Notes: generated by a model from the letters alone, not told the origin. A stretch of DNA of 64,000 nucleotides from an uncultured Oscillospiraceae bacterium (GCA_964430345.1 CAYSFK010000001.1:7-64006), one strand, 5' to 3'. Positions 33,370 through 57,293 are shown, numbered from the stretch's first letter. Numbers and translations: made by a program.

Positions 33370-33714
33370 CTACATTGCTTCTATCTCTTTGATGTTGAAC
33401 TCATTTCCTGTGACAAGGAAGGTGTTGACACTGTGGCATTTGGGGCATTCCTTGGCGAACTCCACCGTGGGGTAGGTGTTCCGGCAGTCCTGACAGAAGG
33501 TGACGGCTTTCAGCTCCTCTATCTTCAGCTCCGTATCCTTCAAAAGCGCTGAGTCCTTGCGGGCGTAAAGCCAGAAATCCGTCAGGTAGTCCGGCACAAT
33601 GCCGCTGACCTCGCCTACCTCAAGGGTGATGGAGCCCACCGCCGTAAGCTCCTGCTCCTTTGCCAGCTTCTCTATAGTGTCAATAACGTATACTATCGTT
33701 CCCAGCTCGTGCAT
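33370..33714 (-). CDS. HypA/HybF-like metallochaperone-fold protein (copy 1)
   Basis: 114 aa with N-terminal MHELG, Zn-ribbon CQDC-x13-CPKC and C-terminal NEFNIKEIE. The start overlaps the upstream stop (TAATG). Confidence 0.75.
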   Translation of the reverse strand: MHELGTIVYVIDTIEKLAKEQELTAVGSITLEVGEVSGIVPDYLTDFWLYARKDSALLKDTELKIEELKAVTFCQDCRNTYPTVEFAKECPKCHSVNTFLVTGNEFNIKEIEAM

Positions 33715-36428
33715 TATTTGCCCTTGCTGCGCAGTATCTTTATCTCGCGCTTCATCGTGTAGGGGAGTATAGCCTTCAGTTTATCCTCGGCCTTGTACAT
33801 CACCGAAGCCTCCGGCAGATCGCGGCTGAGATGGATGGCGTCAAACTCGCAGCGGGTGGTGCACAGACCGCAGCCGATGCACTGGTTCTCGTCCACCTCT
33901 GTGGCGCCGCAGCCCAGGCAGCGGGAAGCCTCCTTTTTGACCTGTTCCTCGGTAAAGGGGAGACGGTCGTTGGCAAAGCTCTTGGCCTTGCTCTCGTCGT
34001 GGCCGACAGTCTGGCGCTTGGCATTGTCGAAGCCCAGAGGTATCACCGCGCTGCTCTTGTCAAGCTCGGTGAACTGACGGAGATTCCGCGCCAGAGTGAG
34101 GCTCTGCCCGTCATGGACAAAGCGGTGCAGGGACTCGGCGCCCTCGCGTCCGGCGGCAATGGCGTCTATGGCGAACTTGGGGCCTGAGGCGAAGTCGCCA
34201 CCGGCAAAGATATCGCTTCGCGCGGTCTGAGCGGTGACCGGGTCAACGATAACCGTACCGTTGGGATTGAAGGTCATCCCTGCGTCGGCAAGGCCGCCCA
34301 GCTCCACCTTCTGGCCCACGGCGCCGATAACGCTGTCAAGCTCGATAGTCTCGAATTTGCCTGTGCCTACGGGCTTGCGGCGGCCCTTGGCGTCGGCCTC
34401 GCCCAGCTCCATAAGCTCCACCTTTATTGCGGCCACCTTGCCGTCCTTGCCGATTATCTCCACGGGAGCGCAGAGGAACTTGAACTGAACGCCTTCGGCC
34501 ATGGCCTCTGCCAGCTCGTCCTTATCGGCGGGCATCTCGGCCTCGCTGCGGCGGTAAATTATATAGGTCTCCTTGGCACCCAGTCTCACAGCGGTGCGGC
34601 ACACGTCCATGGCCACATTGCCGCCGCCTATAACGGCGCACTTCTCGCCCAGCTCCGGCTTCTCGCCCAGATTCACACTGCGCAGGAAGTCAACACCGCC
34701 GTAAACGCCGGAGAGCTCCTCACCCGGAACGCCGATGGGCGCGGACTTCTGGGCGCCGATGGCCATATAGAAGCCCTTGTAGCCCTGAGCGCGCAGCTCG
34801 TCCAGAGTGACGTCCTTGCCCACCTCAACACCGCACTTGAATTCTACGCCCATTTGCTTGAGCACGTCTATCTCAGCATTGATGACGTCCCGCTCAAGAC
34901 GGAAGCTGGGGATGCCCATGGTGAGCATACCGCCGGGGGCGGGGTTACGGTCGAACACGGTGACCTTATAGAGCATATGCGCCAGGAAGTAGGCACAGCT
35001 CATGCCGGCGGGGCCGGCACCTATGACGGCTATCTTCTCCTCGTAGGGAGTGAGCGACATCTTTCTGGGCCTGGGGTCGGGAACATAGCGGCACTCGCTC
35101 TTGAGCTCCTGCTCAGCCACAAAGCGCTTTATCTCGTCTATAGCCACGGCCTTATCCACGCTGGCTCTGGTGCAGGCCTCCTCACAGCGGCGGTTGCAGA
35201 TGCTGCCGCAGACGGCGGGGAAGGGGTTATCCTGCTTTATGAGCTTAAGAGCATCAAGATAGCGGCCGTTGGCGGCCATGTTGATATAGCCCTGAACGGC
35301 AATATGGGCGGGGCAGGCCGTCTTGCAGGGAGAGGTGCCCGTATCGTAGCAGTTTATCATGTTGCTGTTGCGGTAATCCTCGTCCCACTTCTCCGGGCCC
35401 CACTTGGTGTCGTCCGGCAGCTCGTGCTTGGGATACTTGACGGGGCCGTTTACCGTACACAGCTTCTGGCCCAGCTTGGCGGCACCGGCGGGGCAGACCT
35501 CAACGCACTTGCCGCAGGCCACACACTTCTCCTTATCCACATGAGCCCTGTAGGCGCTGCGGGAGAGGTTGGGCGTATTGAACAGCTGGGAGGTACGCAG
35601 AGCGTAGCACACGCCGGGGGCGCAGTTGCAGATGGCGAAAATCTTATCCTCGCCGTCGATATTGGTTATCTGATGGACATAGCCCTCCTCCTCGGCGCGG
35701 CGAAGAATGTCCATGACCTCCTCATATGTACAGACGTGGCCGTCCTTGCCGGTCTCGACGCAGTACCTGGCACAGTCGCCCACAGCGATGCACCAAAGGT
35801 CCTCCACGTCGCCGGAGCCTTCGCCGCGTACGGATTGAGAGCGGCGGCAGGAGCAGGGGCCGACGCAGAAGTAATCATACTTCTTCAGCCAATGGGACAG
35901 ATGCTCAACGCTTACCGACTTGGACCCGGTGGGGATGGCATTCTCCACGGGGATAACGTGCATACCAATACCGGCGCCTCCGGGAGGCACCATGGGAGTG
36001 ACCACCTCCAGAGGAAGCCTGGCCATGGCGTTAAAGAAGTCACAGACCTCGGGGTGGGCCTTGACGAAATCGCCCCGCATATTCAAAAACTCGGCGGCAC
36101 CGGGCACGAACAGCGGCAGCAGATACTGCTTATGGTGGTCCTCGTTCTCCCAGTTGTATTCCAGCATACCCATGCAGCTCAGCTCAAAAAGCATTTTCTC
36201 CAGCTTTTCAAGATCGCTCCAGCCGGAGAGCTTGGATATCTCCTCCAGACTTACAGGCTTGCGCTGCGGCATACTGAGCAAAAGACTCACCATCTCGTCG
36301 TCCAGTATATTAGCCAGACCCCAGTATTCGGGGCAGTCCTCGTTGAGCTTTTGCAGCCCCAGCTTGTATGGGATGCGGTCAGTCATTTTTTTGCCCAACT
36401 TAAACAGATTTTCTTTGTTTGTTACCAT
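33714..36428 (-). CDS. Multi-domain FeS flavoprotein (copy 1): N-terminal Cys-rich module, 4Fe-4S motif, GltD-like NAD(P)H/FAD oxidoreductase, C-terminal ferredoxin
   Basis: About 904 aa from the ATG at 36428 (GGAGAGG upstream). Motifs: VGPCSCRRS...ICNCAPGVC; CVACGKCVEVCP; PCKTACPAHIAVQGYI...NPFPAVCGSICNRRCEEACTR; IAVIGAGPAGMSCAY; AVIGGGNVAMD; CLGCG...CIGCGLCTTRC. Confidence 0.75.
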   Translation of the reverse strand: MVTNKENLFKLGKKMTDRIPYKLGLQKLNEDCPEYWGLANILDDEMVSLLLSMPQRKPVSLEEISKLSGWSDLEKLEKMLFELSCMGMLEYNWENEDHHKQYLLPLFVPGAAEFLNMRGDFVKAHPEVCDFFNAMARLPLEVVTPMVPPGGAGIGMHVIPVENAIPTGSKSVSVEHLSHWLKKYDYFCVGPCSCRRSQSVRGEGSGDVEDLWCIAVGDCARYCVETGKDGHVCTYEEVMDILRRAEEEGYVHQITNIDGEDKIFAICNCAPGVCYALRTSQLFNTPNLSRSAYRAHVDKEKCVACGKCVEVCPAGAAKLGQKLCTVNGPVKYPKHELPDDTKWGPEKWDEDYRNSNMINCYDTGTSPCKTACPAHIAVQGYINMAANGRYLDALKLIKQDNPFPAVCGSICNRRCEEACTRASVDKAVAIDEIKRFVAEQELKSECRYVPDPRPRKMSLTPYEEKIAVIGAGPAGMSCAYFLAHMLYKVTVFDRNPAPGGMLTMGIPSFRLERDVINAEIDVLKQMGVEFKCGVEVGKDVTLDELRAQGYKGFYMAIGAQKSAPIGVPGEELSGVYGGVDFLRSVNLGEKPELGEKCAVIGGGNVAMDVCRTAVRLGAKETYIIYRRSEAEMPADKDELAEAMAEGVQFKFLCAPVEIIGKDGKVAAIKVELMELGEADAKGRRKPVGTGKFETIELDSVIGAVGQKVELGGLADAGMTFNPNGTVIVDPVTAQTARSDIFAGGDFASGPKFAIDAIAAGREGAESLHRFVHDGQSLTLARNLRQFTELDKSSAVIPLGFDNAKRQTVGHDESKAKSFANDRLPFTEEQVKKEASRCLGCGATEVDENQCIGCGLCTTRCEFDAIHLSRDLPEASVMYKAEDKLKAILPYTMKREIKILRSKGK

Positions 36429-36480
36429 TAATGCCTCTCCCTTCAAAATGTGTATAAAACCGAGTAGACCATGCGCTGTA

Positions 36481-36509
36481 ATAATATCACATATGCACAA
36501 TATTGTCAC
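36481..36509 (-). promoter_or_regulatory. Candidate sigma-A promoter for flavoprotein/HypA-like pair 1
   Basis: On the minus strand: GTGACA, 17 nt, TATTAT, about 52 nt upstream of the ATG. Confidence 0.45.
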
Positions 36510-36565
36510 GGTTTTTTATGCGCTGTTCGCGGGATTTACATCAAAAGGGAAAAGGCCGTCGGCTG

Positions 36566-36594
36566 TTGATTTTTGAAGGATTCTGTGGTATGCT
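36566..36594 (+). promoter_or_regulatory. Candidate promoter (extended -10) for the prepilin gene
   Basis: TTGATT, 17 nt, (TGg)TATGCT. Confidence 0.5.
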
Positions 36595-36645
36595 GTGAGC
36601 CAAAATAAAGGACAGACTGAGCGGTTGCTTTGAGAGGGTAATCAA

Positions 36646-37455
36646 ATGAGGATCAGACAGAGACAAGGGAACAGGGCGGGCTTTACTCTGGCGGAGCTGT
36701 TGGTAGTTGTGGCCATTATTGCAGTGCTTGTGGCCATCAGCATCCCGGTTTTCGGCAGCGCGCTGGAGCGGTCAAAGGCGGCAGCCTGTATGGCCAACCG
36801 ACGCTCGCTTTTATCAGAGCTTACGGTGGAGTATATGACGGAAGGGGAGGGCTTTGACCACCCAAATATTGAGCAGTATAAATGCCCGTCGGGAGGCGTG
36901 ATCACTTATTCGCGTAGGGACGGGAAATTTACTGTGCTTTGCTCGGTGCACACCGGCTGGAATAAGGATACCCTGCCCAACGCTTTCAAGGAGGTCTTTA
37001 ACGACTTCAGCGGTAAGAACATCGATTCCAACGCGATCCAGGGTGATGGGGACAACAAGGAGCTCTGGCTCAAGCAGGCAATGGATAAGCTTGAAAAGGC
37101 CGGGATAGACCTTTCGGCAGTGGGCGCGGAGACCTGGTCACTGAGAACGGATAACGAAAACAACCTGTATTTCAACTGGTCTACCGTGGATATCACAGGG
37201 CTCAATGACGGCGATATTGTACCGGTGATACGGTACAGGGATGATGGGAAGTACGCGGGACAGTACAGCGTCTGGGAGTATAAGGTGACTACCATCACCA
37301 GCAACGGCGCGACCTACAAGGTGCTGGGCAACCCGCTGAATAAGGAAGTAAGCGAAAAGCTCAGCATTGAGCAGAAGAAGGATATCAATGTGATCATTGA
37401 CACCTATAATAAATACGCGGAAGGCAAGGAAAACGTCCCGCTGCTGAAAAAATAA
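36646..37455 (+). CDS. Prepilin-type N-terminal cleavage/methylation domain protein (type IV pilin-like)
   Basis: 269 aa with the class III signal QGNRAG/FTLAELLVVVAIIAVLVAISIP (Glu at +5). RBS GAGAGGG. Confidence 0.7.
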   Translation: MRIRQRQGNRAGFTLAELLVVVAIIAVLVAISIPVFGSALERSKAAACMANRRSLLSELTVEYMTEGEGFDHPNIEQYKCPSGGVITYSRRDGKFTVLCSVHTGWNKDTLPNAFKEVFNDFSGKNIDSNAIQGDGDNKELWLKQAMDKLEKAGIDLSAVGAETWSLRTDNENNLYFNWSTVDITGLNDGDIVPVIRYRDDGKYAGQYSVWEYKVTTITSNGATYKVLGNPLNKEVSEKLSIEQKKDINVIIDTYNKYAEGKENVPLLKK

Positions 37456-37459
37456 AGAA

Positions 37460-37503
37460 ATACCGCGCCCAAACGCTGAAGCTTCGGGCGCGGTATCTTT
37501 TTG
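37460..37503 (+). terminator. Rho-independent terminator after the prepilin gene
   Basis: ATACCGCGCCC, 16-nt loop, GGGCGCGGTAT, then CTTTTTG. Confidence 0.65.
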
Positions 37504-37516
37504 CCGGTACAGCCTG

Positions 37517-38293
37517 TCATCCGGCGCACTGGCGTCCGGTGTTATCAATAAAAGTGGTGCCGGTAAGCAGTATCTGGGAGATGGGGATAATCTTATATCC
37601 GTCGGCCAGCAGTGATTCGATAATTCCCGGCAGAGCCTCCGGGGTGTTCTCCGCGGCGTTGTGGAACAGCACTATGCTGCCCGGCTCTACCTTCTCCAGC
37701 ACCCGGCGCTTTATGTCCAGAGCGGACAGCCCCTTCCAGTCCAGACTGTCCACGTCCCACTGGACGGCGGTCATGCCCATGCCGCTGACAGTGCTGATAA
37801 CATGGTCGTCATACTCGCCGTAGGGGCAGCGGAACAGCGTGGGCGTGACCCCGGTGACGGCAGCTATTTTTTCGTTGCAGGCGGTCACGTCCGCGATTAT
37901 CTCATCCTCGCTGAGCTTGGAGAAATGGGCGTGGTTCAGGGAGTGGTTCATTATCTCGCTGCCGCTGTCGGCCAGAGCCCTGACTGATTCCGGGTATTTA
38001 TCCACCCAGTCGCCCACCACGAAGAAGGTGGCATTTATCTTGTATTTGCCCAGTATGTCTATCAGTGCCTGAGTGTCCTCGTTGCCCCAGGCCGCGTCAA
38101 AGCTCAGGGAAACCACCTTGTCATCCCGCTCCACACAGTAGACTGGCAACTGCCGATCGGAGGCGGAGACGCCCACGATGGCGGGGCTGTTCACTGTCCA
38201 GAATATCAGCACCAGCGCCGCCGTCAGCGCGATGGCGGATACGGCGCCCTTATACCTGCCCATGGTCTTTTTGAAATCAGTCAAGCTCATCAC
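37517..38293 (-). CDS. Polysaccharide deacetylase (NodB homology domain)
   Basis: Signal anchor, then LSFDAAWGNEDT...ATFFVVGDW...NHSLNHAHF...LFHN. The exact start is uncertain (GTG/ATG/TTG cluster). Confidence 0.8.
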   Translation of the reverse strand: MMSLTDFKKTMGRYKGAVSAIALTAALVLIFWTVNSPAIVGVSASDRQLPVYCVERDDKVVSLSFDAAWGNEDTQALIDILGKYKINATFFVVGDWVDKYPESVRALADSGSEIMNHSLNHAHFSKLSEDEIIADVTACNEKIAAVTGVTPTLFRCPYGEYDDHVISTVSGMGMTAVQWDVDSLDWKGLSALDIKRRVLEKVEPGSIVLFHNAAENTPEALPGIIESLLADGYKIIPISQILLTGTTFIDNTGRQCAG

Positions 38294-38333
38294 TCCTTTT
38301 GGTTCATACTATGAGAAGCGACGGGCGAATATA

Positions 38334-38366
38334 ACGAAAACACAGGCGGCAGAGATGCCGCCTGTG
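38334..38366 (-). terminator. Rho-independent terminator ending the four-gene redox operon
   Basis: On the minus strand: CACAGGCGGCA-TCTC-TGCCGCCTGTG followed by TTTTCGTTAT. Confidence 0.6.
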
Positions 38367-38376
38367 CCTCATAATT

Positions 38377-38727
38377 CTACTGTTCCTCCGGGACGTGGAT
38401 CTCCTTAATGTTGAAGTCCTTGCCGGAAAGAACATCCTTGTCGAAGCTGCCGCAGTTGGGGCAGTAGCCCTTGTGCTCAACCACGTTGAATATCTCGTCG
38501 CAGTCGTTGCACTCGGCAAGGCCCGGGATTATCTCAATGATAAGCTTTGTGTCCTTCAGCTCCGTATCCATGACCACCGCCGGGTACACATCCTCTACAT
38601 ACTCCGGTATGACCAGAGACAGCTCGCCTATCTCGCAGACTATCTCGCTTATCCTCTGGACATTGTTCTCTCTGGCGTAGTCCAGAACGGTCTTGCACAT
38701 ACTTCTGACGATGCCAATTTCATGCAT
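38377..38727 (-). CDS. HypA/HybF-like metallochaperone-fold protein (copy 2)
   Basis: 116 aa with MHEIG, Zn-ribbon CNDC-x12-CPNC and C-terminal KDFNIKEIHV. It starts 6 nt after the stop of the upstream gene. Confidence 0.75.
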   Translation of the reverse strand: MHEIGIVRSMCKTVLDYARENNVQRISEIVCEIGELSLVIPEYVEDVYPAVVMDTELKDTKLIIEIIPGLAECNDCDEIFNVVEHKGYCPNCGSFDKDVLSGKDFNIKEIHVPEEQ

Positions 38728-38733
38728 AAGCGT

Positions 38734-41418
38734 TTATTTTCCGAACTTTATCTTCTTGGCGGCCAGCTTGCCCACGGCGGCGGGCGCGTTGCCGAAGATG
38801 TTCAGCAGAGCCTTGTAATAGCTGGGGCCCTTGTACTCGCTGACCTTCTCCAGATGTATGGCGTCGAACTTGCACTTAGTGGTGCATATGCCACAGCCGA
38901 TGCACATATACTCGTCCACCTGAACCGCGCCGCAGCCCAGGCAGCGCTCGGCCTCCTTCTTCATCTGCTCCTCGGTGAATACACCGCGAAGATCCTCAAA
39001 GGTCTTTTTGGCCTCGCTTGCCGAACCGGAGGCGGCCTTCTGCCGGGGAGCTGTGTCAAAGCAGTCAAGGGCGATGGCCACGTTCTCCGTATCCAGCGCC
39101 TTGTAGTCCCGCCTGTCGCGGCCAAAGTCCAGAGTCTGCCCGTCGTGCACAAAGCGGTGGATGGAGACAGCGCCCTCCTTGCCGGCCGCAATGGCGTCAA
39201 TGGCAAACTTGGGTCCCGTCACCGCGTCGCCGCCGGCGAACACGTCCTTTTCGCCGGTCTGCCAGGTGAAGGCGTCGGCTATGACCGTGCCCTTGTCGCT
39301 GAGCTTTACGCCGCCCAGGTCCAGGCTGCCCATGTCAACCTTCTGACCGATGGCGGATATGACCGATGTGAATTCCACCGTGTCAAATTCGCCGGTGCCT
39401 ACTGGCTTGCGGCGGCCCTTGGCGTCCGCCTCGCCCAGCTCCATGCGCTCCAGCTTAAGAGACTGCACCTTGCCCTCGCCCAGTATCTCCACGGGCGCGG
39501 CCAGATACATGAACTTGACGCCCTCTTCCTCGGCCTCGAGTATCTCATCGTCCGCAGCGGGCATTTCCTCTCTGGCGCGGCGGTACACGATGGTGACCTC
39601 CTTGGCCCCCAGTCTCACGGCTGTGCGGGCCACGTCTATGGCCACGTTGCCGCCGCCGATGACCGCCACCTTATCGCCCAGCTCTACCTGCTGGCCCAGA
39701 TTGACCTTGCGCAGGAACTCTATGCCGGTGAACACGCCGGGCAGCTCATCGCCCTTGCAGCCAACGGTGCCGCCCTTGGAGGCGCCGATGCCAAGATAGA
39801 AAGCCTTGTAGCCGTCGGCGCGCAGCTGGGCCAGAGTGACGTCTTTGCCCACCTCTACGCCGGTCCTGAACTCTACGCCCAGACCCTTGAGTATGTCTAT
39901 CTCGGCGTTTATGACCTCACGGCCAAGACGGAAGCTGGGTATGCCCATGGTGAGCATACCGCCCAGAAGCTGTTCCTTCTCAAACACGGTCACGGGATAG
40001 CCCTTAACCGCCAGATAGTAGGCACAGCTAAGCCCCGCGGGGCCGGCGCCGATGACCGCTATCTTTTCCTCGTAGGGCTTGCCCAACTGGTTGAGCATCT
40101 TGGGTACAAAGCGGGTCTCCGCATCAAGGTCCTTCTCGGCGATGAACTTCTTGATATCGTCGATGGCGATGGGGGAGTCTATGCGGCCGCGGGTGCAGGC
40201 GTCCTCGCAGGCCTTGTTGCATATGCGCCCGCAGACGGCGGGGAAGGGGTTCTCTTTCTTGATGAGCTCCAGAGCCTCGGCGTATCTGCCCTCGGAGGCC
40301 AGCTTAATGTAGCCCTGTACGGGGATATGGGCGGGGCAGGCGCTCTTGCAGGGGGAGGTGCCGGTCTCCACCACGTTCTTGCGGGACACCCGGTAATCGG
40401 GGTTATAGGAGTCGGCGCTCCACATACTGCTTTTGGCCTTTTCGTTCTCGTCGGTCAGCTCAACCGGCTTCACTTCGCAGAGCTTCTGGCCCAGGCGAAG
40501 GGCGTTGGTCTGGCAGTTTTCCACGCACTGTCCGCAGGCAACGCACTTTTCCTTTTCTACAACGGCCTTGAAGTTGGAGCGCATACCGTCGGGCTTCTTA
40601 AAGTACTCGGCGATACGCAGGGAGAAGCAGGAGCAGCCGCAGCAGTTGCAGATGGCAGTGGCCTCCTCGAAGCCGGGGGCCTGATTTATCTCATGGACAA
40701 GGCCGTTGTCCTCAGCCCGCTTGAGTATCTCATAGGCCTCCTCCTTGGAGACCAGATGGTGCTCGCCGTACTTGGAGTAGTTGATGGCATTGTCGTTGAG
40801 ATACATACACATATCGTCTTCCAGATGCCCGCAGCCTTCGCCCATTATCCGGCGGGAACGGCGGCAGGAGCAGGGGCCGACGGAGATGGCCTTGGCATTC
40901 TCGATAAGTGTGCTTATCTCGTCATAGGAGGCTGTGCGGGAGTTGTTCTCGATGGCGCTCATGACGGGCATGACCCGCATAAAGGACATACCGCGGCCCA
41001 TCATGGGTGCCAGCACGGATATGCGCTTTCTGGTGTACTCCTCAAAGCACTGGGCCAGAATGGGGTACTTCTCGCACTGGGCCTTGTTGCTCAGCACACC
41101 TTCCATGACGCCGGGAACCCAGATGGGGTAGTAGTATCCGGTGCCCTTCTCAGTCTTGCGGACACGGGCAACGCCGCAGTCTATGAGCTTCTGGATCTGT
41201 CCGGCTATGTAGTCCGGGGCCTTTTTGCAGCGGGCTGCCAGCTCCTCCACCGTGCGGGGTGTCTCCAGCTTCATGTGCATCATCACATCGCACATTTCGT
41301 CGTCAATGATGGGCTCCAGTATTTTGTACTCGCTGTCGTTGTAGGTCACGCCGGTATAGGTCATGCCCTCCAGACTGATCTTGCTCGCAAGCGCGAGAAT
41401 ATTTGGTCTGTTTGCCAT
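38734..41418 (-). CDS. Multi-domain FeS flavoprotein (copy 2), paralog of 33714..36428
   Basis: 894 aa with VGPCSCRRS...ICNCCGCSC; CVACGQCVENC; PCKSACPAHIPVQGYI...NPFPAVCGRICNKACEDACTR; IAVIGAGPAGLSCAY; AVIGGGNVAID; CLGCG...CIGCGICTTKC. RBS GAGGTGAAATT. Confidence 0.75.
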   Translation of the reverse strand: MANRPNILALASKISLEGMTYTGVTYNDSEYKILEPIIDDEMCDVMMHMKLETPRTVEELAARCKKAPDYIAGQIQKLIDCGVARVRKTEKGTGYYYPIWVPGVMEGVLSNKAQCEKYPILAQCFEEYTRKRISVLAPMMGRGMSFMRVMPVMSAIENNSRTASYDEISTLIENAKAISVGPCSCRRSRRIMGEGCGHLEDDMCMYLNDNAINYSKYGEHHLVSKEEAYEILKRAEDNGLVHEINQAPGFEEATAICNCCGCSCFSLRIAEYFKKPDGMRSNFKAVVEKEKCVACGQCVENCQTNALRLGQKLCEVKPVELTDENEKAKSSMWSADSYNPDYRVSRKNVVETGTSPCKSACPAHIPVQGYIKLASEGRYAEALELIKKENPFPAVCGRICNKACEDACTRGRIDSPIAIDDIKKFIAEKDLDAETRFVPKMLNQLGKPYEEKIAVIGAGPAGLSCAYYLAVKGYPVTVFEKEQLLGGMLTMGIPSFRLGREVINAEIDILKGLGVEFRTGVEVGKDVTLAQLRADGYKAFYLGIGASKGGTVGCKGDELPGVFTGIEFLRKVNLGQQVELGDKVAVIGGGNVAIDVARTAVRLGAKEVTIVYRRAREEMPAADDEILEAEEEGVKFMYLAAPVEILGEGKVQSLKLERMELGEADAKGRRKPVGTGEFDTVEFTSVISAIGQKVDMGSLDLGGVKLSDKGTVIADAFTWQTGEKDVFAGGDAVTGPKFAIDAIAAGKEGAVSIHRFVHDGQTLDFGRDRRDYKALDTENVAIALDCFDTAPRQKAASGSASEAKKTFEDLRGVFTEEQMKKEAERCLGCGAVQVDEYMCIGCGICTTKCKFDAIHLEKVSEYKGPSYYKALLNIFGNAPAAVGKLAAKKIKFGK

Positions 41419-41471: not shown

Positions 41472-42689
41472 CTATTTTACAGGGTATACGCAAAGCTCGA
41501 TGTCGCTGAGGGGATAGGAACAGCAGGGGTGTACCCAGCCGAATTTCTTATCCGCCAGCCTGCGCCCGTCCGCGTCCGGCGGGCAATAGTACTCGCCCAT
41601 AACAAGCTTCGAGTGGCACCAGCCGCACTCGCCGCTGCGGCAGTGGGAGGGGGCCGCTATACCGGCGCGCTCCATTGCCCAGAGCAGCGTTTCGCCGGCC
41701 TCGCAGGGTACGGTCTGCTTCTTGCCGCGGATGTCCACGGTAAGCTTGAATTCGCCGCTTTTCTTGTCCGCGGGGTAGTCGGCGTTGTTGACGGCGCCCA
41801 TGTAGTCGCCGGACATCTCCGCCCGGTAACGGCGCTTGGGAAGGCCAAGCTTCTGGCACTCCGGGATGCAGAAGTCGTACATGGCCTTGGGGCCGCACAT
41901 GAACACCGAGAAGTCGCCTTCGGGAGCGTACTTTTTGATAAGCTCCCCGTTGATGAAGCCGTGCTCATAGCCCGCCTTCTCCTCGTGGGACAGCACGTGT
42001 ACCACCTTCACACGGCCGTTGGACTCCGCTGCCAGCGCTTCTATCTCATCCTTGAGCAGGATGCCGTCAGAGCTGCGGCTGCCGTAGAGGATGGTCATGT
42101 CGAAGTCCTCTATGCCGGAGACTATGGCGGCGGCCATAGAGTAGAAGGGAGTGATGCCGCTGCCGCCGGCGACGGCAACGATGTGCTTCGCGTCACGCAG
42201 CGCCTGATAGTAAAAGTCCCCCAGAGGGCCGCTGAGCTCTACGCTGTCGCCTTCCTTCCAGGTGTCCAGAATGAACCGGGAGGCATAGGCCGGGTCTGTG
42301 AGCTTGACGGTGAGTATGTAGCTGCTGCCCTCGCCCAAAGCGTCCTTGGGGTTTGAGCGGATGGTGTAGGGCTTATTCACCAGAGCACCGCTGATGTTCA
42401 GCGCAACGCTCACATACTGGCTGGCGCGGAAATAAGCCAGCTTCTCCGTGCCTTTGGACTTGTCCGCTGTCAGGGTAAAGCTCTTGGCTCCGCCGTGGTC
42501 CTCCACCTTAGCTATCTTAGTATATTGTACCCCAGGATGCAGTGTCTTGGCAAGGACATTTTCATTATATACAGAAACAGGCAAATCCGTAGGTGCCGCC
42601 TCTATCATCTTGGTACGAAGCTTGGTTTCGCCCAGGAACGCGCCTACGCCCAGACCCTTGAGGGCGCTCTTATCGTAGTTGTATTTCAT
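41472..42689 (-). CDS. FNR-family flavin reductase with C-terminal plant-type 2Fe-2S ferredoxin domain (Hcr / phthalate-dioxygenase-reductase-like)
   Basis: 405 aa with the FAD-binding motif RASQYVS-type (RxYS/T), the NAD-binding GGSGITP, and C-terminal HCRSGECGWCHSKL...HPCCSYP. Confidence 0.75.
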   Translation of the reverse strand: MKYNYDKSALKGLGVGAFLGETKLRTKMIEAAPTDLPVSVYNENVLAKTLHPGVQYTKIAKVEDHGGAKSFTLTADKSKGTEKLAYFRASQYVSVALNISGALVNKPYTIRSNPKDALGEGSSYILTVKLTDPAYASRFILDTWKEGDSVELSGPLGDFYYQALRDAKHIVAVAGGSGITPFYSMAAAIVSGIEDFDMTILYGSRSSDGILLKDEIEALAAESNGRVKVVHVLSHEEKAGYEHGFINGELIKKYAPEGDFSVFMCGPKAMYDFCIPECQKLGLPKRRYRAEMSGDYMGAVNNADYPADKKSGEFKLTVDIRGKKQTVPCEAGETLLWAMERAGIAAPSHCRSGECGWCHSKLVMGEYYCPPDADGRRLADKKFGWVHPCCSYPLSDIELCVYPVK

Positions 42690-44225
42690 TTATTTGCCCT
42701 CCTTCATGTCAAGAAGCATATGCCGGGCCTGCTCCGCGCCGCTGAGATAGGCCTGACTGTAGCCGTCCATCTGGGTGCCGTGGCCGCCGCAGAAGCGCAG
42801 ACCCTTGACGGTGTAGTCCAGGTGTATGGACTGGACTCTGGGGAACATACCGTCCCAGGTGCGGGGCTCGTAGCCATATACATCGCCGTAGGGCGTACCC
42901 AGATATCTGGCCCAGGTAACGGGGGAGGCCACTACCAGCTCCTCGATATGGCTGCGTATATCAAGGCCGGAGACCCGCTCGTAGTCCATAACCGCGTCCA
43001 TGGCTATTTTATCCTTGAGCTTAAAGTACTCCTCCTCGCTGACGCCCTCAAATATGCTGGTTGTATAGAACTTGCTGAACTGGAGATAGCAGCTGCCGGG
43101 ACGGGAGGCGTCGGGTATGACGTTGTTGAGCACGGTGACGCAGTAATCGTTGTGGGTGTCGATTGAGGCTGCGTTGTCATACTGCTTGAGCGTGTCGCCG
43201 GTGGTGCGCACAAAGGTGTCGTAACCCTTTAGGCCTATTTCCTCGGCGGAGGCGTCCAGACCCAGATAGACCGTGAAGGCGGACTGGGCCAGCTTTCTGG
43301 CGTTCATGGCCTTAAGATCACGCTCCGGTATCTCGCTGTGGTCCACCATCCTGTCAAAGACCACCGTGGGCATCAGGTTTGAGATGACCCGCTCACAGGG
43401 CAGGTACTCGCCGCTGCAGAGCTCTACGCCGCGCACGGCGTTGTTCTTTACGTCGATGCGCTTTACCTCGCAGTTGTACCAGATGTCGCCGCCCAGCTCC
43501 CGGATACGCTGGTCATAGGCAAGGCTTATCTCATGGCTGCGGTTTTTTGCTATCCAGGGCTTCTTGGTGAGATATACATAGACCATGAAGCAGTAGACCG
43601 CGAAGCTTATCTTCGTGGAATCCACGCTTACGTAGTCCCAATAGGACTCGTATATCTCGCGGGCCTTGTCGGGTACGCCTATTTTCCTGAGCATCTCGTC
43701 ACAGGTGACTGGGACCACCTTCATCAAATCGTGGTACTTCAGCAGCATCTCCACCTTGGCAAGGGGGCCGGGCTCATTATTGTGCTCTGCCAGCCAGGCC
43801 ACGCCGTCCTTCAGCATCCGGCCAAGCTCCATCACCGTGGTCATGGACTCTCTGGAGCCGGGGACCTCCTTCTCCATGGCGTCGATAAACTCCTGAACAC
43901 CGTCGGGCATGAAAACATTGAAGCCGGTCTCCGGGTCGGTGTTAATGGACGAAAAGGCCTCGTTCACCGGCACCCAGTCCACGTCCAGCCCGTATCCGTC
44001 CAGCAGCGCCCGCACCGCGGCGGGGTCCTCCGCCGTGCCCATCTGGCACAGCTCATGCAGCGTGGCCTCAAACTCGAAATCGCCCCGCTTAAAGCTGGTG
44101 GCGCAGCCGCCGGGGAGATTGTGCTTTTCCAGCACCAGTACCTTCTTGCCGGCCTTGCACAGATAGGCGGCCGCCGAAAGGCCGCCGTTGCCGGCTCCTA
44201 CAACAATTACGTCGTACTTGGGCAT
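42690..44225 (-). CDS. Phytoene-desaturase-family (CrtI-like) FAD-dependent oxidoreductase
   Basis: 511 aa with N-terminal [38 protein letters not shown] and a C-terminal GGHGTQMDG-type FAD motif. Its stop directly abuts the next gene's ATG (TAAATG). Confidence 0.75.
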
Positions 44226-44332: not shown

Positions 44333-44360
44333 GCACAAATCGTAGGCTGCTGATTTGTGC
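44333..44360. promoter_or_regulatory. Perfect 9-bp inverted repeat GCACAAATC-N10-GATTTGTGC in the divergent control region
   Basis: Read directly from the sequence. It lies between the two divergent promoter candidates. Confidence 0.3.
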
Positions 44361-44407
44361 AGATATGTCAAAAAAATCGGGCTGTGGCCGGGAACGGAAA
44401 GCCATAC

Positions 44408-44436
44408 TTGATTTTGGATGCCTGCAGGGCTATAAT
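44408..44436 (+). promoter_or_regulatory. Sigma-A promoter for the GntR regulator
   Basis: TTGATT, 17 nt, TATAAT. It lies inside the 5' part of the track ORF, so the GTG at 44357 is unlikely to be the start. Confidence 0.55.
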
Positions 44437-44470
44437 AACGGTGAAGTATCATAGAAACGGAATCGATGCA

Positions 44471-45190
44471 ATGCGTGAAAACTGCGGTCAGGGGCTGAAG
44501 GATAAATTTATCAACATCATGCAGGCGAGGATACTGTCCGGGGAGCTGAAGCCCGGAGACCCCTTGCCCCCTGAGCGGGAGCTGGCGGCCCAGCTGGGCA
44601 TCAGCCGGGGCTCCGTGAATCAGGGCATACTGGATATGGAGCGCATGGGCTTTCTGAGGATAGTTCCCAGAAAGGGCAGCTTTGTGGCGGATTATATTAA
44701 AAATGCCACGCCGGTGACGCTGAGCGCCATAATGAGCTATGATTCCCAACTGGTGGACGGGAATCTTTTTAAAGACCTTATGGAGCTGCGTATACTCGTC
44801 GAACGGGAATGCGTCCGGCTGGCCTGCGGAAAGGTGAGCAATACCGCAAGGGAGAAGCTGGCCCGACTCAACGAGCAGATACACGATTTCAAGGGCGAGG
44901 CTCCGGTGGAAGCGCTGTACGACTACCACCGATGCATCACCAAGATATCCGGCAACGCCGCCTATTCCATGGTGTTCCAGAGCTTTGAGAAGATGCTGAA
45001 GAACCTGATGCAGGTCCACTACAGCAATGAAAGCGAGCTTAAAAAGAGCCTGCCCCTGTACGACGCTTTGACGGCTGCTCTGAGCCGGGGCGATGGGGCG
45101 GAGGCGGACGAGCTTATCCTTAAGCTGCTGGGATCTGCCTCTGTGTACCTGAACAAACGGCTCAGCGGAAAGACGGCGGCCGATGAGTAA
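44471..45190 (+). CDS. GntR-family transcriptional regulator, FadR subfamily (FCD ligand domain)
   Basis: wHTH LPPERELAAQLGISRGSVNQGILDMERMGFLRIVPRKGSFV, then a helical FCD-like C-terminal domain. Confidence 0.8.
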   Translation: MRENCGQGLKDKFINIMQARILSGELKPGDPLPPERELAAQLGISRGSVNQGILDMERMGFLRIVPRKGSFVADYIKNATPVTLSAIMSYDSQLVDGNLFKDLMELRILVERECVRLACGKVSNTAREKLARLNEQIHDFKGEAPVEALYDYHRCITKISGNAAYSMVFQSFEKMLKNLMQVHYSNESELKKSLPLYDALTAALSRGDGAEADELILKLLGSASVYLNKRLSGKTAADE

Positions 45191-54907: not shown

Positions 54908-55222
54908 TTGAGCGGGGAGACAGAACGGGATAAAACGACGCCGGACGGGGAAAAGCTGTTTGAGCTGTCGGAGTTTTTCAGAGTCTTTGGAGACGCATCC
55001 AGATTACGAATACTCTTTGCACTTTTGGAAAGTGAAAAATGCGTGATAGACATCGCTCAGGAGCTGGGCCTGTCCCAGTCTGCGGTGTCCCATCAGCTTC
55101 AGACCCTGAGGGGCAGGCGTTTGGTCAAGTACCGCCGTGACGGCAAGACCGTCTTTTATTCTCTGGCGGATGACCATATTTTTTCCATAATCAATCAGGG
55201 CATGGAGCACGTTGAGGAGTGA
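54908..55222 (+). CDS. ArsR/SmtB-family metalloregulator
   Basis: 104 aa with LRILFALLESEKCVIDIAQELGLSQSAVSHQLQTLR...DGKTVFYSL. TTG start after GGAGGGG. Confidence 0.8.
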   Translation: MSGETERDKTTPDGEKLFELSEFFRVFGDASRLRILFALLESEKCVIDIAQELGLSQSAVSHQLQTLRGRRLVKYRRDGKTVFYSLADDHIFSIINQGMEHVEE

Positions 55223-55226
55223 GCCG

Positions 55227-57293
55227 ATGATAGATGACGAGGACGTAAAGATATGGAAGGGCGCCGACGGTGACGGGGACGTCAAGATATGGCGCGGCCA
55301 GCCTCAGTCAGAGGAGCGGACGGCGGATATTGACGCGGATGAGCCGAGGCCCGGCCAGAGAAGCCGGGCCGTGGATTATGATACCGAGCGCAGCTCTGTG
55401 CCCCGGAAAAGGGCGGAGCGCCGCAGGAGCGGCGGCAGGCGTCACGAGAACGAGCTGTCCGTCAGGAGCGTCATTGCGGTAATAGTCTCCGCCTTGCTGC
55501 TGGCTGCGGCCATGTTCCTGCCGGAGGAGGGCTGGTACAGGATAGTCTGCTTCGCGGCGGCTGCGGCTGTGGTGGGTATAGGCCTGGTGTTTGACGCGGT
55601 GGCCTGTGCCATGGAAGGAGACTTTACCAGCGGCAGTCTTATCATGACGGCGGCGGCTGTAGCCTCTTTCTGTATAGGCTTGTACCCGGAGGCAGTGCTG
55701 ATACTGGTGTTATACCGGGCGGGTGAGCTGTTTTCGGCATTTGCTTCGGAGAGAAGCGCCAGAAGCCTTGAAACGCTGAGAGCGATCCTGACTGACAAAG
55801 CCAACGTGGAGACGCCTGAGGGTATACTTACGGTGGGCCCGGAATACGTGAACGTGGGGGATGTGCTGGTGGTAGCCCCCGGCGAGACAGTAGCCCTGGA
55901 CGGCACGGTGATAGAGGGCATCACCTCGCTGAACACCGCCGCCATTACCGGAGATACCGAGGCCAGAAATGTGTCAGTGGGCAGCCCGGTATACTCCGGG
56001 ACGGTGAACCTGACGGGCCTTATACGTGTCCGGGTCAGCCGGGACGTGAAGCATTCCACGGCGTATATGCTGTCCCGCATGGCTCAGGCTTCCACGGAGC
56101 GGAGGTCCGGACGGGAGCGCTTTGTGGAAAGCTTCGGACGGATATATACTCCCGCAGTGCTTGCGGCGGGGCTGCTGCTGGCTGTACTGCCGCCGCTGTT
56201 TGACGGCCTTTGGGGCCAGTGGATAGGCAGGGGAGTTATACTGCTGGCTGTGTCCGGCTCCGGGGCACTGTCGCTGTCCGTGCCCATCGCCTTTGCCGGC
56301 GGCTTGGGCAGGGCCGCCGCGAGGGGCATATTCCCGAAGGGCACCGATGTTTTGGAGAAGCTGGCTGCGGTGAACACGGTGGTATTTGACAAGACGGGCA
56401 CTATTACCGACGGCAGGTATTCCGTGACGGATGTGGCGCCCGCCGGTATGAGCGAGCAGAGGCTGCTGGCCATGGCGGCCACAGTGGAGAGTTGCTCTGA
56501 GCACCCCATAGCCCGCTGCCTGAGAGAAGCCAGCGCACCGCTGAATATCGACGCCGCCCTTATGCAAACAGAGGAGATACCCGGCAGAGGCGTCAGCGCA
56601 AATATCGGCGGCAGGCATATCCTGGCCGGAAACGCCGCGCTGCTAGAGGCAGAAGGGGTGGACTATGAGATACCCGCCAGAGGCGGCGCCGCTGTACATC
56701 TGGCGCTGGACGGCAGATACTGCGGCTATATCATGCTGGCGGACAAGCTACGGGAGGGCGCCTTTGACGCACTGGAGTCCCTGCGGGTGCAGGGCATTCA
56801 AAAGCTTGTGATGCTTACGGGCGATGTGCTCTCCGTGGCAAGACCCCTGGCAAGTAAGCTGAATTTTGATATGCTCAGGGCGGAGCTCAGACCGGAGGAG
56901 AAGCGTTCGGCGCTGGAGTATTTAATAGAAAACAGGGGAGACAGCGCCTCAGTAGCTTTCGTAGGCGACGGAATCAACGACTGCTCCTGCTTAGAGCTGG
57001 CCGACGTGGGCATTGCCCTGGGCGCTTTGGGTCGCGATGAGGCCATAGCCGCTGCTGACCTGCTGCTGATGGATGATGATATTCGCGCGCTTCCCCAGGC
57101 TGTGCGGACAGCAAAGCTGAGCAAGACTGTGGCCTTGGAAAACATTTTCGCGGCGGTTGCGGTGAAGCTGACAGTTATCATTCTCAGCGCGGCGGGGCTT
57201 ATCCCACTGGCCGCGGCCGTGAGCTGCGACACAGTGGTGATGATAGGGGCATTACTTAATTCTATGAGGACGCATTTTATAAGGCGGCATTGA
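55227..57293 (+). CDS. P1B-like P-type ATPase with degenerate transmembrane metal-binding motif
   Basis: DKTGTITDG, SEHPIA, MLTGD and GDGINDC are present. TM6 reads VSGSGALSLSVP where CPC is expected, and there is no HMA domain. ATG at 55227 after GAGGAG. Confidence 0.75.
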   Translation: MIDDEDVKIWKGADGDGDVKIWRGQPQSEERTADIDADEPRPGQRSRAVDYDTERSSVPRKRAERRRSGGRRHENELSVRSVIAVIVSALLLAAAMFLPEEGWYRIVCFAAAAAVVGIGLVFDAVACAMEGDFTSGSLIMTAAAVASFCIGLYPEAVLILVLYRAGELFSAFASERSARSLETLRAILTDKANVETPEGILTVGPEYVNVGDVLVVAPGETVALDGTVIEGITSLNTAAITGDTEARNVSVGSPVYSGTVNLTGLIRVRVSRDVKHSTAYMLSRMAQASTERRSGRERFVESFGRIYTPAVLAAGLLLAVLPPLFDGLWGQWIGRGVILLAVSGSGALSLSVPIAFAGGLGRAAARGIFPKGTDVLEKLAAVNTVVFDKTGTITDGRYSVTDVAPAGMSEQRLLAMAATVESCSEHPIARCLREASAPLNIDAALMQTEEIPGRGVSANIGGRHILAGNAALLEAEGVDYEIPARGGAAVHLALDGRYCGYIMLADKLREGAFDALESLRVQGIQKLVMLTGDVLSVARPLASKLNFDMLRAELRPEEKRSALEYLIENRGDSASVAFVGDGINDCSCLELADVGIALGALGRDEAIAAADLLLMDDDIRALPQAVRTAKLSKTVALENIFAAVAVKLTVIILSAAGLIPLAAAVSCDTVVMIGALLNSMRTHFIRRH

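Follow-up and report, generated by a model that had tools for sequence, protein, structure and literature searches.

Each of two gene pairs in the window (the whole stretch of 64 kb that was analysed) probably encodes an oxidoreductase of the IsrA family together with its own dedicated nickel metallochaperone of the HypA type, and the presence of two pairs is probably due to a duplication that took in both genes at once. The pairing is real but not new, and the window adds two members to a published family of putative function. IsrA, from Acetobacterium wieringae ISORED-2, is a putative isoprene reductase of 901 aa; in that strain isoprene induces IsrA, HypA and HypB together (Kronen et al. 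2023, PMC10134865). Among 988 IsrA ‘clade 9’ homologs the neighbouring genes were hypA (73%), hypB (56%) and DUF5692 (40%), and HypA and HypB were proposed to load nickel into the oxidoreductase (PMC10134865).

The original prediction had read the pairs as pointing either to an undescribed client for HypA or to a HypA fold recruited as a small subunit. That the client is something other than hydrogenase or urease is supported by the 74% adjacency of hypA, the presence of hypB at 52% of related loci and the invariant metal-site residues described below. “Undescribed” was wrong, because Kronen et al. 2023 (PMC10134865) reported the same ~900-aa family, the hypA/hypB/DUF5692 neighbourhood and the nickel-client proposal; the family thus does have a published functional description. 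Literature searches for an account of the pairing specific to the gut turned up only that paper and two 2026 preprints.

Organization of the two gene pairs

The two pairs and the features that flank them are as follows.

33714-36428, minus strand: large 1, isrA-like oxidoreductase 1, 904 aa from the ATG (ORF, Pfam)
33370-33714, minus strand: small 1, hypA-like gene 1, 114 aa (ORF, Pfam HypA)
38734-41418, minus strand: large 2, isrA-like oxidoreductase 2, 894 aa (ORF, Pfam)
38377-38727, minus strand: small 2, hypA-like gene 2, 116 aa (ORF, Pfam HypA)
36481..36509, minus strand: promoter-like site GTGACA-17-TATTAT with TG, upstream of pair 1 (consensus scan, 10/12 matches)
38337..38370, minus strand: terminator-like hairpin, 15-bp stem and T-rich tail, right after hypA-like gene 2 (consensus scan)
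41472-42689, minus strand: FNR-like FAD/NAD and 2Fe-2S reductase, upstream of pair 2 (Pfam, NCBIfam)
42690-44225, minus strand: FAD protein of the CrtI/phytoene-desaturase family, upstream of pair 2 (Pfam, NCBIfam)
44357..45190, plus strand: divergent regulator of the GntR/FCD family (Pfam GntR and FCD)

All four ORFs of the two predicted minus-strand pairs were found, and the tight coupling claimed for them was seen again on re-reading the sequence. In pair 1 the start of small 1 overlaps the stop of large 1 as TAATG, and in pair 2 a gap of 6 nt separates the stop of large 2 from small 2. About 2 kb lie between the two units. The RBS GGGAGAGG precedes the large 1 ATG at 36428, and large 2 is preceded by a 53-nt gap that also carries an RBS; the promoter-like site ahead of pair 1 is no more than a pattern match. 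The CrtI-like and FNR-like genes, the latter encoding a plant-type Fer2 domain (Pfam), may share a transcript with pair 2, although their membership of the unit is uncertain. As conserved partners they were rejected, since they were found at one other locus only (L034). The divergent GntR/FCD gene is a candidate regulator of the block, and GntR homologs occurred near the large gene at 8 other loci.

Domain architecture of the large proteins

Over their whole length the large proteins share 49% identity. The GltD-like part (residues 350-770) is more alike, at 65%, within the 60-70% originally estimated for it by eye, and the other regions are at 24-43%. The Pfam search that had been suggested for these proteins matched Fer4_20 (PF14691), Pyr_redox_2 (PF07992) and Fer4 (PF00037) in both, while no Pfam family scored above its cut-off in residues 1-285. 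Both have the same layout: a winged-helix-like N-terminus, a Cys6 domain, split ferredoxin motifs for 2x[4Fe-4S], and a GltD/NfnB-like part made up of Fer4_20 and an FAD/NAD(P) domain.

Residues ~350-770 aligned to solved members of the NfnB/GltD/DPD domain II family of NAD(P)H-dependent Fe-S flavoproteins, at E 1e-84 to 1e-126 for the six highest-ranking matches (9bov_A through 5vj7_A); the best were 9bov_A, 8oh5_C, 9n5u_A and 5jca_L. Two [4Fe-4S] sites and the FAD and NAD(P) Rossmann folds are shared with these families, whereas the N-terminal 350-aa module of winged helix, Cys6 and Fer4 and the linkage to hyp genes are not. Both proteins fell below the cut-offs of the gltA/NfnB-type NCBIfam models TIGR01316 (331 and 329 bits vs 471.75) and TIGR01318 (307 and 314 bits vs 482.95), and no gene for an NfnA/PyrK-like or GltB partner was adjacent to either large gene. 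YgfK, a putative selenate reductase subunit (TIGR03315), is likewise a long Fe-S flavoprotein, built on a GltD-like core and ending in a ferredoxin, but the match was partial (351-367 bits, far under the cut-off of 835), and its N-terminal region and gene context differ.

Relatives of large 1 at 62-77% identity were found in Oscillospiraceae and Lachnospiraceae loci. Large 2 has many homologs of ~895 aa at 72-83% identity, named ‘FAD-dependent oxidoreductase’, and the N-terminal domain alone defines some 1,000 clusters when sequences are grouped at 50% identity (E<=1e-10). The family, with its private HypA, is abundant in gut and rumen Clostridia.

Resemblance to IsrA

The likeness to IsrA (VUZ27132.1 / WP_228882120.1) rests on its published description, that is, on length, motif positions, domains and neighbours. 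The lengths are 901 aa for IsrA and 904 and 894 aa here, and the CxC motifs of IsrA, at 180/182 and 254/256, correspond to 183/185 and 257/259 in protein 2. IsrA and the window proteins have in common an N-terminal stretch of ~270 aa with no domain call, a Fer4 motif near residue 290 with another at the C-terminus, and the Fer4_20 (DPD domain II) and FAD/NAD(P) domains. The dominant neighbours also match (hypA 74% and hypB 52% at our 65 loci, vs 73% and 56% for the 988 IsrA homologs). Unlike the IsrA cluster, the window unit consists of the large gene and hypA, with no hypB, second hypA or 350-aa ferredoxin, and it is doubled in this gut-type Oscillospiraceae genome. Homolog and cluster searches with the window proteins gave no match named Acetobacterium or Pelotomaculum. 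Other Acetobacterium species whose homologs are 47-49% identical do not reduce isoprene (PMC10134865), so the substrate here is probably not that of IsrA.

A conserved six-cysteine site in the N-terminal region

An alignment of homologs revealed six N-terminal cysteines that were invariant in 71/71 sequences. Their positions in the two proteins were taken from the alignment.

35607..35855, minus strand: Cys6 site of protein 1 (C192, C194, C213, C267, C269, C274)
40627..40872, minus strand: Cys6 site of protein 2 (C183, C185, C204, C257, C259, C264)

Residues R186, H242 and N258 of protein 2 were likewise invariant in 71/71, as were the ferredoxin-motif cysteines at 292/295/298/302 and 839/842/845/849. 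We propose Cys6 as the site of a catalytic or nickel-binding cluster. Kronen et al. 2023 (PMC10134865) proposed that in IsrA the site holds Fe/S cluster V and perhaps Ni, and noted its likeness to P-cluster and double-cubane sites.

An AlphaFold2 model of residues 1-350 of protein 2 (mean pLDDT 75.7) predicted a winged-helix fold at about residues 1-140. Model quality was low in the ferredoxin part, since the C-terminal half that completes it had been omitted. Foldseek found no match to this model in the PDB at E<=0.001 and none for the Cys6 region; the sole matches were winged helices of the ArsR/MarR/SmtB type, all at E>0.001. Sequence searches of the PDB with the N-terminal 350 aa, as a single sequence and as a 30-sequence profile, returned only generic ferredoxin-motif proteins (FwdF, TYKY and polyferredoxins, 9sfi_T among them) and the winged-helix regulator 2d1h, and these were set aside.

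The small proteins belong to the HypA family

Both small proteins matched Pfam HypA (PF01155) end to end, at 101.0 bits for small 1 and 103.7 bits for small 2 against a gathering cut-off of 28.9; the matches cover positions 1-111 and 1-112 of the 112 in the profile. Their assignment to HypA, first made from motifs, therefore holds. The two are 35% identical to each other, and small 2 gave full-length matches to HypA proteins of known structure from T. kodakarensis and H. pylori (3a43, 6g81, 2kdx). The MHE terminus and the four zinc cysteines (CxxC, CPxC) were invariant in 61/61 HypA sequences, both window proteins included. His2-Glu3 and the zinc site are hallmarks of nickel-handling HypA.

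With the HypA/HybF of [NiFe]-hydrogenase maturation the window proteins share the full-length Pfam domain, the MHE nickel site, the CxxC...CPxC zinc ribbon and a length of ~115 aa. Unlike those proteins, they are tied genetically to a flavoprotein and no NCBIfam HypA equivalog model reached its curated cut-off with either (on TIGR00100, 72.2 bits for small 1 and 77.1 bits for small 2 vs 88.1). HypA is not confined to hydrogenase, and that of H. pylori serves urease too.

The pairing is conserved across related loci

To the claim that a HypA-like gene adjoins the large gene in other genomes as well, a sample of 65 related loci from other species, covering many Clostridia and other taxa, gave clear support. 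hypA was directly downstream of the large gene at 48/65 loci (74%) and within 3 kb (<=3 kb) at 53/65 (82%), with none within 3 kb at 12/65. At 34/65 loci (52%) hypB lay <=7 kb from the large gene, and the neighbouring HypB proteins were well above the TIGR00073 cut-off of 121 bits, with scores of 230-255. DUF5692 neighbours were present at 9 loci, and at 9/65 loci neither hypA nor hypB was nearby, yet the Cys6 site was kept. The frequencies of downstream hypA (74%) and nearby hypB (52%), taken with the invariance of the MHE terminus and zinc cysteines (61/61) and of Cys6 (71/71), argue that the pairing is not due to chance.

Within the window and at locus L002 (contig CAKTMF010000003.1), the HypA of the small 1 type goes with the large 1 type of oxidoreductase and that of the small 2 type with the large 2 type. 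Distance matrices of the large proteins and HypA correlated at r=0.88, a value as high being reached in 0/2000 permutations; this correlation is not proof of physical interaction, as adjacent genes are co-inherited anyway.

The HypA-like protein could instead be a permanent small subunit, a zinc-ribbon and metal-binding module with a structural or catalytic role, and not a transient chaperone. Both pairs are tightly coupled, each enzyme paralog retained one private HypA after duplication, hypB is missing in the window and its nearest relatives, and the small proteins diverge from the HypA equivalog models. However, one or two HypB GTPases are encoded at about half of the related loci, and HypB is known to act in nickel hand-over together with HypA. 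Gene order is also loose at some loci: at L039 and L041 hypB genes separate the large gene from hypA, L080 has its hypA on the other strand, and 12/65 loci have no hypA <=3 kb away. As the nickel-binding MHE terminus is moreover strictly conserved, we regard a permanent subunit as unlikely and favour a dedicated nickel chaperone.

Absence of hydrogenase partners in the window

Among 36 proteins of the 64-kb window scanned against Pfam, none was the product of a hydrogenase, urease, CODH or hypB-F gene, and HypB was absent from a six-frame translation even at E<=10, which upholds the original statement that none of hydrogenase, hypB, urease and CODH is present. The ‘FAD-dependent oxidoreductase’ and ‘HypA’ genes of the window should be annotated as belonging together, and not as evidence of a hydrogenase. 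At the closest Oscillospiraceae loci hypB was missing as well, so HypA would have to deliver nickel either by itself or with the help of a hypB located elsewhere.

The two hypA genes could instead have been displaced and serve the maturation of a [NiFe]-hydrogenase, urease or CODH encoded elsewhere, their location being incidental. Our view is limited to 64 kb of the genome, and Pelotomaculum has both IsrA homologs and [NiFe]-hydrogenases. The adjacency at 48/65 loci (74%) from many families and the joint duplication of both genes nevertheless speak against this, as does the window itself, with no hypB-F, hydrogenase, urease or CODH genes. In addition, the cluster occurs in A. wieringae ISORED-2, a strain that lacks both [NiFe]-hydrogenase and hypCDEF and whose remaining nickel enzymes have maturases of their own (PMC10134865). 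Displacement is, in our estimation, very improbable.

Nickel as the probable metal delivered

The nickel-dependent ureohydrolases GdmH (guanidine hydrolase) and MefH (metformin hydrolase) require adjoining hypA/hypB genes, and HypA and HypB are proven activators of metformin hydrolase (PMC11399263). They are a precedent for hypA/hypB serving a nickel enzyme other than hydrogenase or urease (PMC11399263). The ureohydrolase client is dinuclear with measured nickel and hypB is present; in the window the client would be an Fe-S flavoprotein whose nickel is putative, and there is no local hypB.

In February 2026 nickel in the IsrA family was still a hypothesis, and the HypA-like protein might instead handle zinc, iron or cobalt, or aid assembly of an all-iron Cys6 cluster, so that no nickel enzyme would be involved. 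CxC-rich sites can hold unusual Fe-S clusters, and the likeness of Cys6 to P-cluster and double-cubane sites (PMC10134865) is consistent with this. A nickel transporter was not found among the recurrent neighbours either; ABC and Ecf ATPases were considered as nickel transporters and, from their gene context, judged to be housekeeping synteny or unrelated ABC systems. Against another metal, the nickel-handling hallmarks His2-Glu3 and the zinc site are invariant, the partner HypBs exceed the cut-off of the nickel-chaperone equivalog, and all characterised HypA/HypB clients use nickel, namely hydrogenase and urease (family descriptions), GdmH and metformin hydrolase (PMC11399263). We therefore consider a different metal improbable, and nickel delivery by HypA the better reading.

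Proposed mechanism

What we observed is the architecture, residue conservation and gene linkage; from these we infer an electron path, nickel and its place of insertion, and a type of substrate. The FAD of the GltD/NfnB-like domain would be reduced by NAD(P)H. A chain of [4Fe-4S] clusters would then carry electrons from the Fer4_20 domain to the ferredoxin fold formed by two CxxCxxCxxxC motifs, one near residue 292 and one near residue 839, and the electrons would end at the N-terminal catalytic site with its six invariant cysteines, including two CxC motifs. HypA would bind Ni(II) at Met1-His2-Glu3, dock transiently on the apo-enzyme and hand nickel to, or beside, the Cys6 site, and in many relatives HypB GTPases would assist delivery. 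The mature enzyme may reduce a poorly activated substrate, most plausibly the C=C of an unsaturated hydrocarbon-like compound. The two-gene unit would have been duplicated whole, with each HypA staying with its own enzyme.

If the published hypothesis is right, the family would be a new kind of nickel enzyme among the few known, a flavin/Fe-S reductase that hydrogenates unactivated double bonds at a nickel-containing Cys6 site. Since two genes can make up the whole unit, it is conveniently small for expression, for metal analysis and for screening of substrates. A more tentative possibility, to which we give less weight, is that both paralogs in gut Oscillospiraceae are nickel-iron-sulfur enzymes, each matured by its HypA without HypB and each hydrogenating a different unactivated C=C from diet or host. 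This would imply HypB-independent nickel insertion and a new catalytic nickel cluster, widespread in the gut microbiome. Candidate diet or host substrates for such enzymes are terpenoids, polyenes and conjugated lipids.

HypA-flavoprotein gene pairs in the window

Both minus-strand pairs of the original prediction, each a large Fe-S flavoprotein gene followed by a small HypA-like gene, were found as open reading frames at exactly the coordinates it had given:

33714-36428, minus strand: large gene 1, 904 aa
33370-33714, minus strand: small gene 1, 114 aa, overlapping large gene 1 as TAATG
38734-41418, minus strand: large gene 2, 894 aa
38377-38727, minus strand: small gene 2, 116 aa, 6-nt gap after large gene 2

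A GGGAGAGG ribosome-binding site and a promoter-like GTGACA-17-TATTAT site lie 5' of the ATG at 36428, and a strong terminator-like hairpin lies directly 3' of small gene 2. Overall identity is 49% between the large proteins, reaching 65% across the GltD-like part against 24-43% in the remainder; between the small proteins it is 35%.

Pfam HypA covered small 1 and small 2 end to end at 101 and 104 bits (cut-off 28.9), which bears out their assignment to the HypA family, and both sequences also matched the solved HypA of Thermococcus and Helicobacter. On the NCBIfam HypA equivalog models they scored 72 and 77 bits against 88.1, below every curated cut-off. Because they passed Pfam and missed the equivalog cut-offs, we regard them as divergent family members rather than typical hydrogenase HypA. 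The Met-His-Glu N-terminus and the CxxC...CPxC zinc site were kept in 61 of 61 HypA-like proteins.

In both large proteins, Pfam placed Fer4_20 and Pyr_redox_2 at residues about 350-770, with ferredoxin motifs around residue 290 and at the C-terminus. Solved relatives (NfnB, GltD, DPD and related chains) covered only residues 350-835. A sequence search for solved relatives of the first 350 residues returned none, and an AlphaFold2 model of the N-terminal region had structural neighbours only for a predicted winged-helix fold, at about residues 1-140. Six N-terminal cysteines, here called the Cys6 site (C183, C185, C204, C257, C259 and C264 in protein 2), were invariant in 71/71 large proteins, as were R186, H242 and N258 in the same numbering. 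A subclade with an N-terminal extension (MINENDYWQDPNY...; loci L043, L048, L050, L051, L060 and L063, from Butyrivibrio and other Lachnospiraceae) has neither hypA nor hypB nearby, yet retains all six cysteines. At locus L082 (10712-13231), two Fer4 proteins, each about 416 aa long, come after a distant relative of 889 aa, P0294, which has no hypA.

Conservation of the pairing

A survey with the N-terminal region specific to this family as query, in which each species was represented by a single genome, gave 80 loci. Most came from MAGs assigned to Oscillospiraceae, Lachnospiraceae, Clostridiales or Clostridia, and a minority bore the labels Erysipelotrichia, Solobacterium, Eggerthellaceae or Anaerovoracaceae. 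Linkage was counted for the 65 full-length large genes with sufficient downstream sequence. A HypA gene lay immediately 3' on the same strand in 48 (74%), so the adjacency noticed in the window is conserved in other genomes; a HypA gene lay within 3 kb in 53/65, hypB within 7 kb of the large gene in 34/65 (52%), and neither was near it in nine. One uncultured Oscillospiraceae MAG (L002) carries both pairs, about 1 kb apart (about 2 kb in the window), with each enzyme type again accompanied by its own type of HypA, so the duplication took in the two-gene unit as one.

On TIGR00073 (cut-off 121) the neighbouring hypB genes score 230-255 bits, which marks them as genuine; they often form two tandem copies or overlap the large-gene start. 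Tandem, often overlapping pairs lie beside the oxidoreductase at L029, L034-L037, L039-L041, L045, L046, L061, L065, L066, L070, L072 and L079. Such pairs suggest a heterodimeric HypB, and differ from the published isr operon, which has one hypB and two hypA. A DUF5692 membrane protein recurred in 9 loci.

Relation to IsrA and a proposed nickel-chaperone role

The original prediction proposed an "undescribed" client for HypA, but the pairing and its interpretation were already in print in 2023 (PMC10134865). An isoprene-induced operon of Acetobacterium wieringae ISORED-2 encodes the 901-aa FAD-dependent oxidoreductase IsrA, a putative isoprene reductase, with two HypA, one HypB and a 350-aa ferredoxin, in a genome from which [NiFe]-hydrogenase and hypCDEF are absent (PMC10134865). 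IsrA has an N-terminal ~270 aa without a domain call, a Cys6 site that includes the CxC motifs Cys180/182 and Cys254/256, Fer4 motifs (residues 289-300 and 848-877), and a DPD-II plus FAD/NAD(P) core (PMC10134865). Compared through this published description, all of these features, like the neighbour frequencies given below, agree with our independent measurements. The N-terminal winged-helix, Cys-rich and Fer4 module also occurs in many stand-alone proteins of about 355-370 aa, which resemble the isr operon's "ferredoxin".

Among 988 "clade 9" homologs, co-occurrence was 0.73 for HypA, 0.56 for HypB, 0.4 for DUF5692 and 0.21 for TetR, and Kronen et al. proposed IsrA as a nickel client of HypA/HypB, with the Cys6 site as the probable point of insertion; they also proposed that its homologs hydrogenate other unsaturated hydrocarbons (PMC10134865). 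Nickel dependence of IsrA was still a hypothesis in a February 2026 preprint, and our literature search found no paper on gut-bacterial family members. The HypA-flavoprotein linkage is real and conserved, and is not a new discovery; what is new here is two added members from a gut-type Oscillospiraceae genome, in which the unit is minimal, has no HypB and is duplicated.

Each pair most likely encodes an IsrA-family reductase and its dedicated nickel chaperone. NAD(P)H would donate electrons, FAD and then four [4Fe-4S] clusters would relay them, and the Cys6 site, loaded with nickel by HypA, would receive them. The original prediction also offered a structural role, with HypA as a small subunit; the frequent co-occurrence of HypB, the loose gene order in some loci and the strict retention of the nickel-binding terminus favour a chaperone instead. 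Nickel-dependent ureohydrolases activated by HypA/HypB encoded beside them provide a precedent (PMC11399263). Against the nickel-chaperone model count the failure to find hypB in the window or the closest Oscillospiraceae loci, the related loci that lack both hyp genes, and the homologs of other Acetobacterium species, 47-49% identical, which do not reduce isoprene (PMC10134865).

Surroundings of the pairs

A Pfam scan of 36 window proteins found no hydrogenase, urease, CODH or hypB-F, and a HypB profile matched nothing in any of the six translated frames, even with the threshold relaxed to E<=10; the absence of hydrogenase, hypB, urease and CODH, as first read, is true for the 64 kb. The genes that the scan did show are housekeeping or miscellaneous (UvrD, fumarase, malic enzyme, ComEC, ABC/FtsX, MBOAT, P-type ATPase, sugar kinases). 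Neighbours referred to here are:

36646-37455, plus strand: prepilin-type N-methylation-motif protein, between the pairs
37517-38293, minus strand: polysaccharide deacetylase, between the pairs
41472-44225, minus strand: CrtI/phytoene-desaturase-family FAD protein (511 aa) abutting an FNR-like FAD/NAD plus plant-type 2Fe-2S reductase (405 aa)
44357-45190, plus strand: GntR/FCD-family regulator
54908-57293, plus strand: ArsR-like regulator overlapping the start of a 693-aa P-type ATPase

In the P-type ATPase, DKTGT lies at residue 393; a search of it for a CPC, CPH or SPC motif found none. An interval of 53 nt separates the CrtI-like and FNR-like unit from large gene 2, which follows it on the same strand; the unit might act on related unsaturated substrates. 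A similar unit (35-37% identity) occurs at L034 (1393-4124), with a hypB-hypB-isrA-hypA cluster some 4 kb away; since the arrangement recurs in just this one other locus, it hints no more than weakly at substrate class. Beyond these genes lies the divergent GntR/FCD regulator, a family also found close to the large gene at eight further loci (L003, L009, L012, L022, L030, L057, L073 and L078). TetR was the frequent regulator reported in 2023 (PMC10134865). The polysaccharide deacetylase occupies the same inter-pair position in L002 as in the window.
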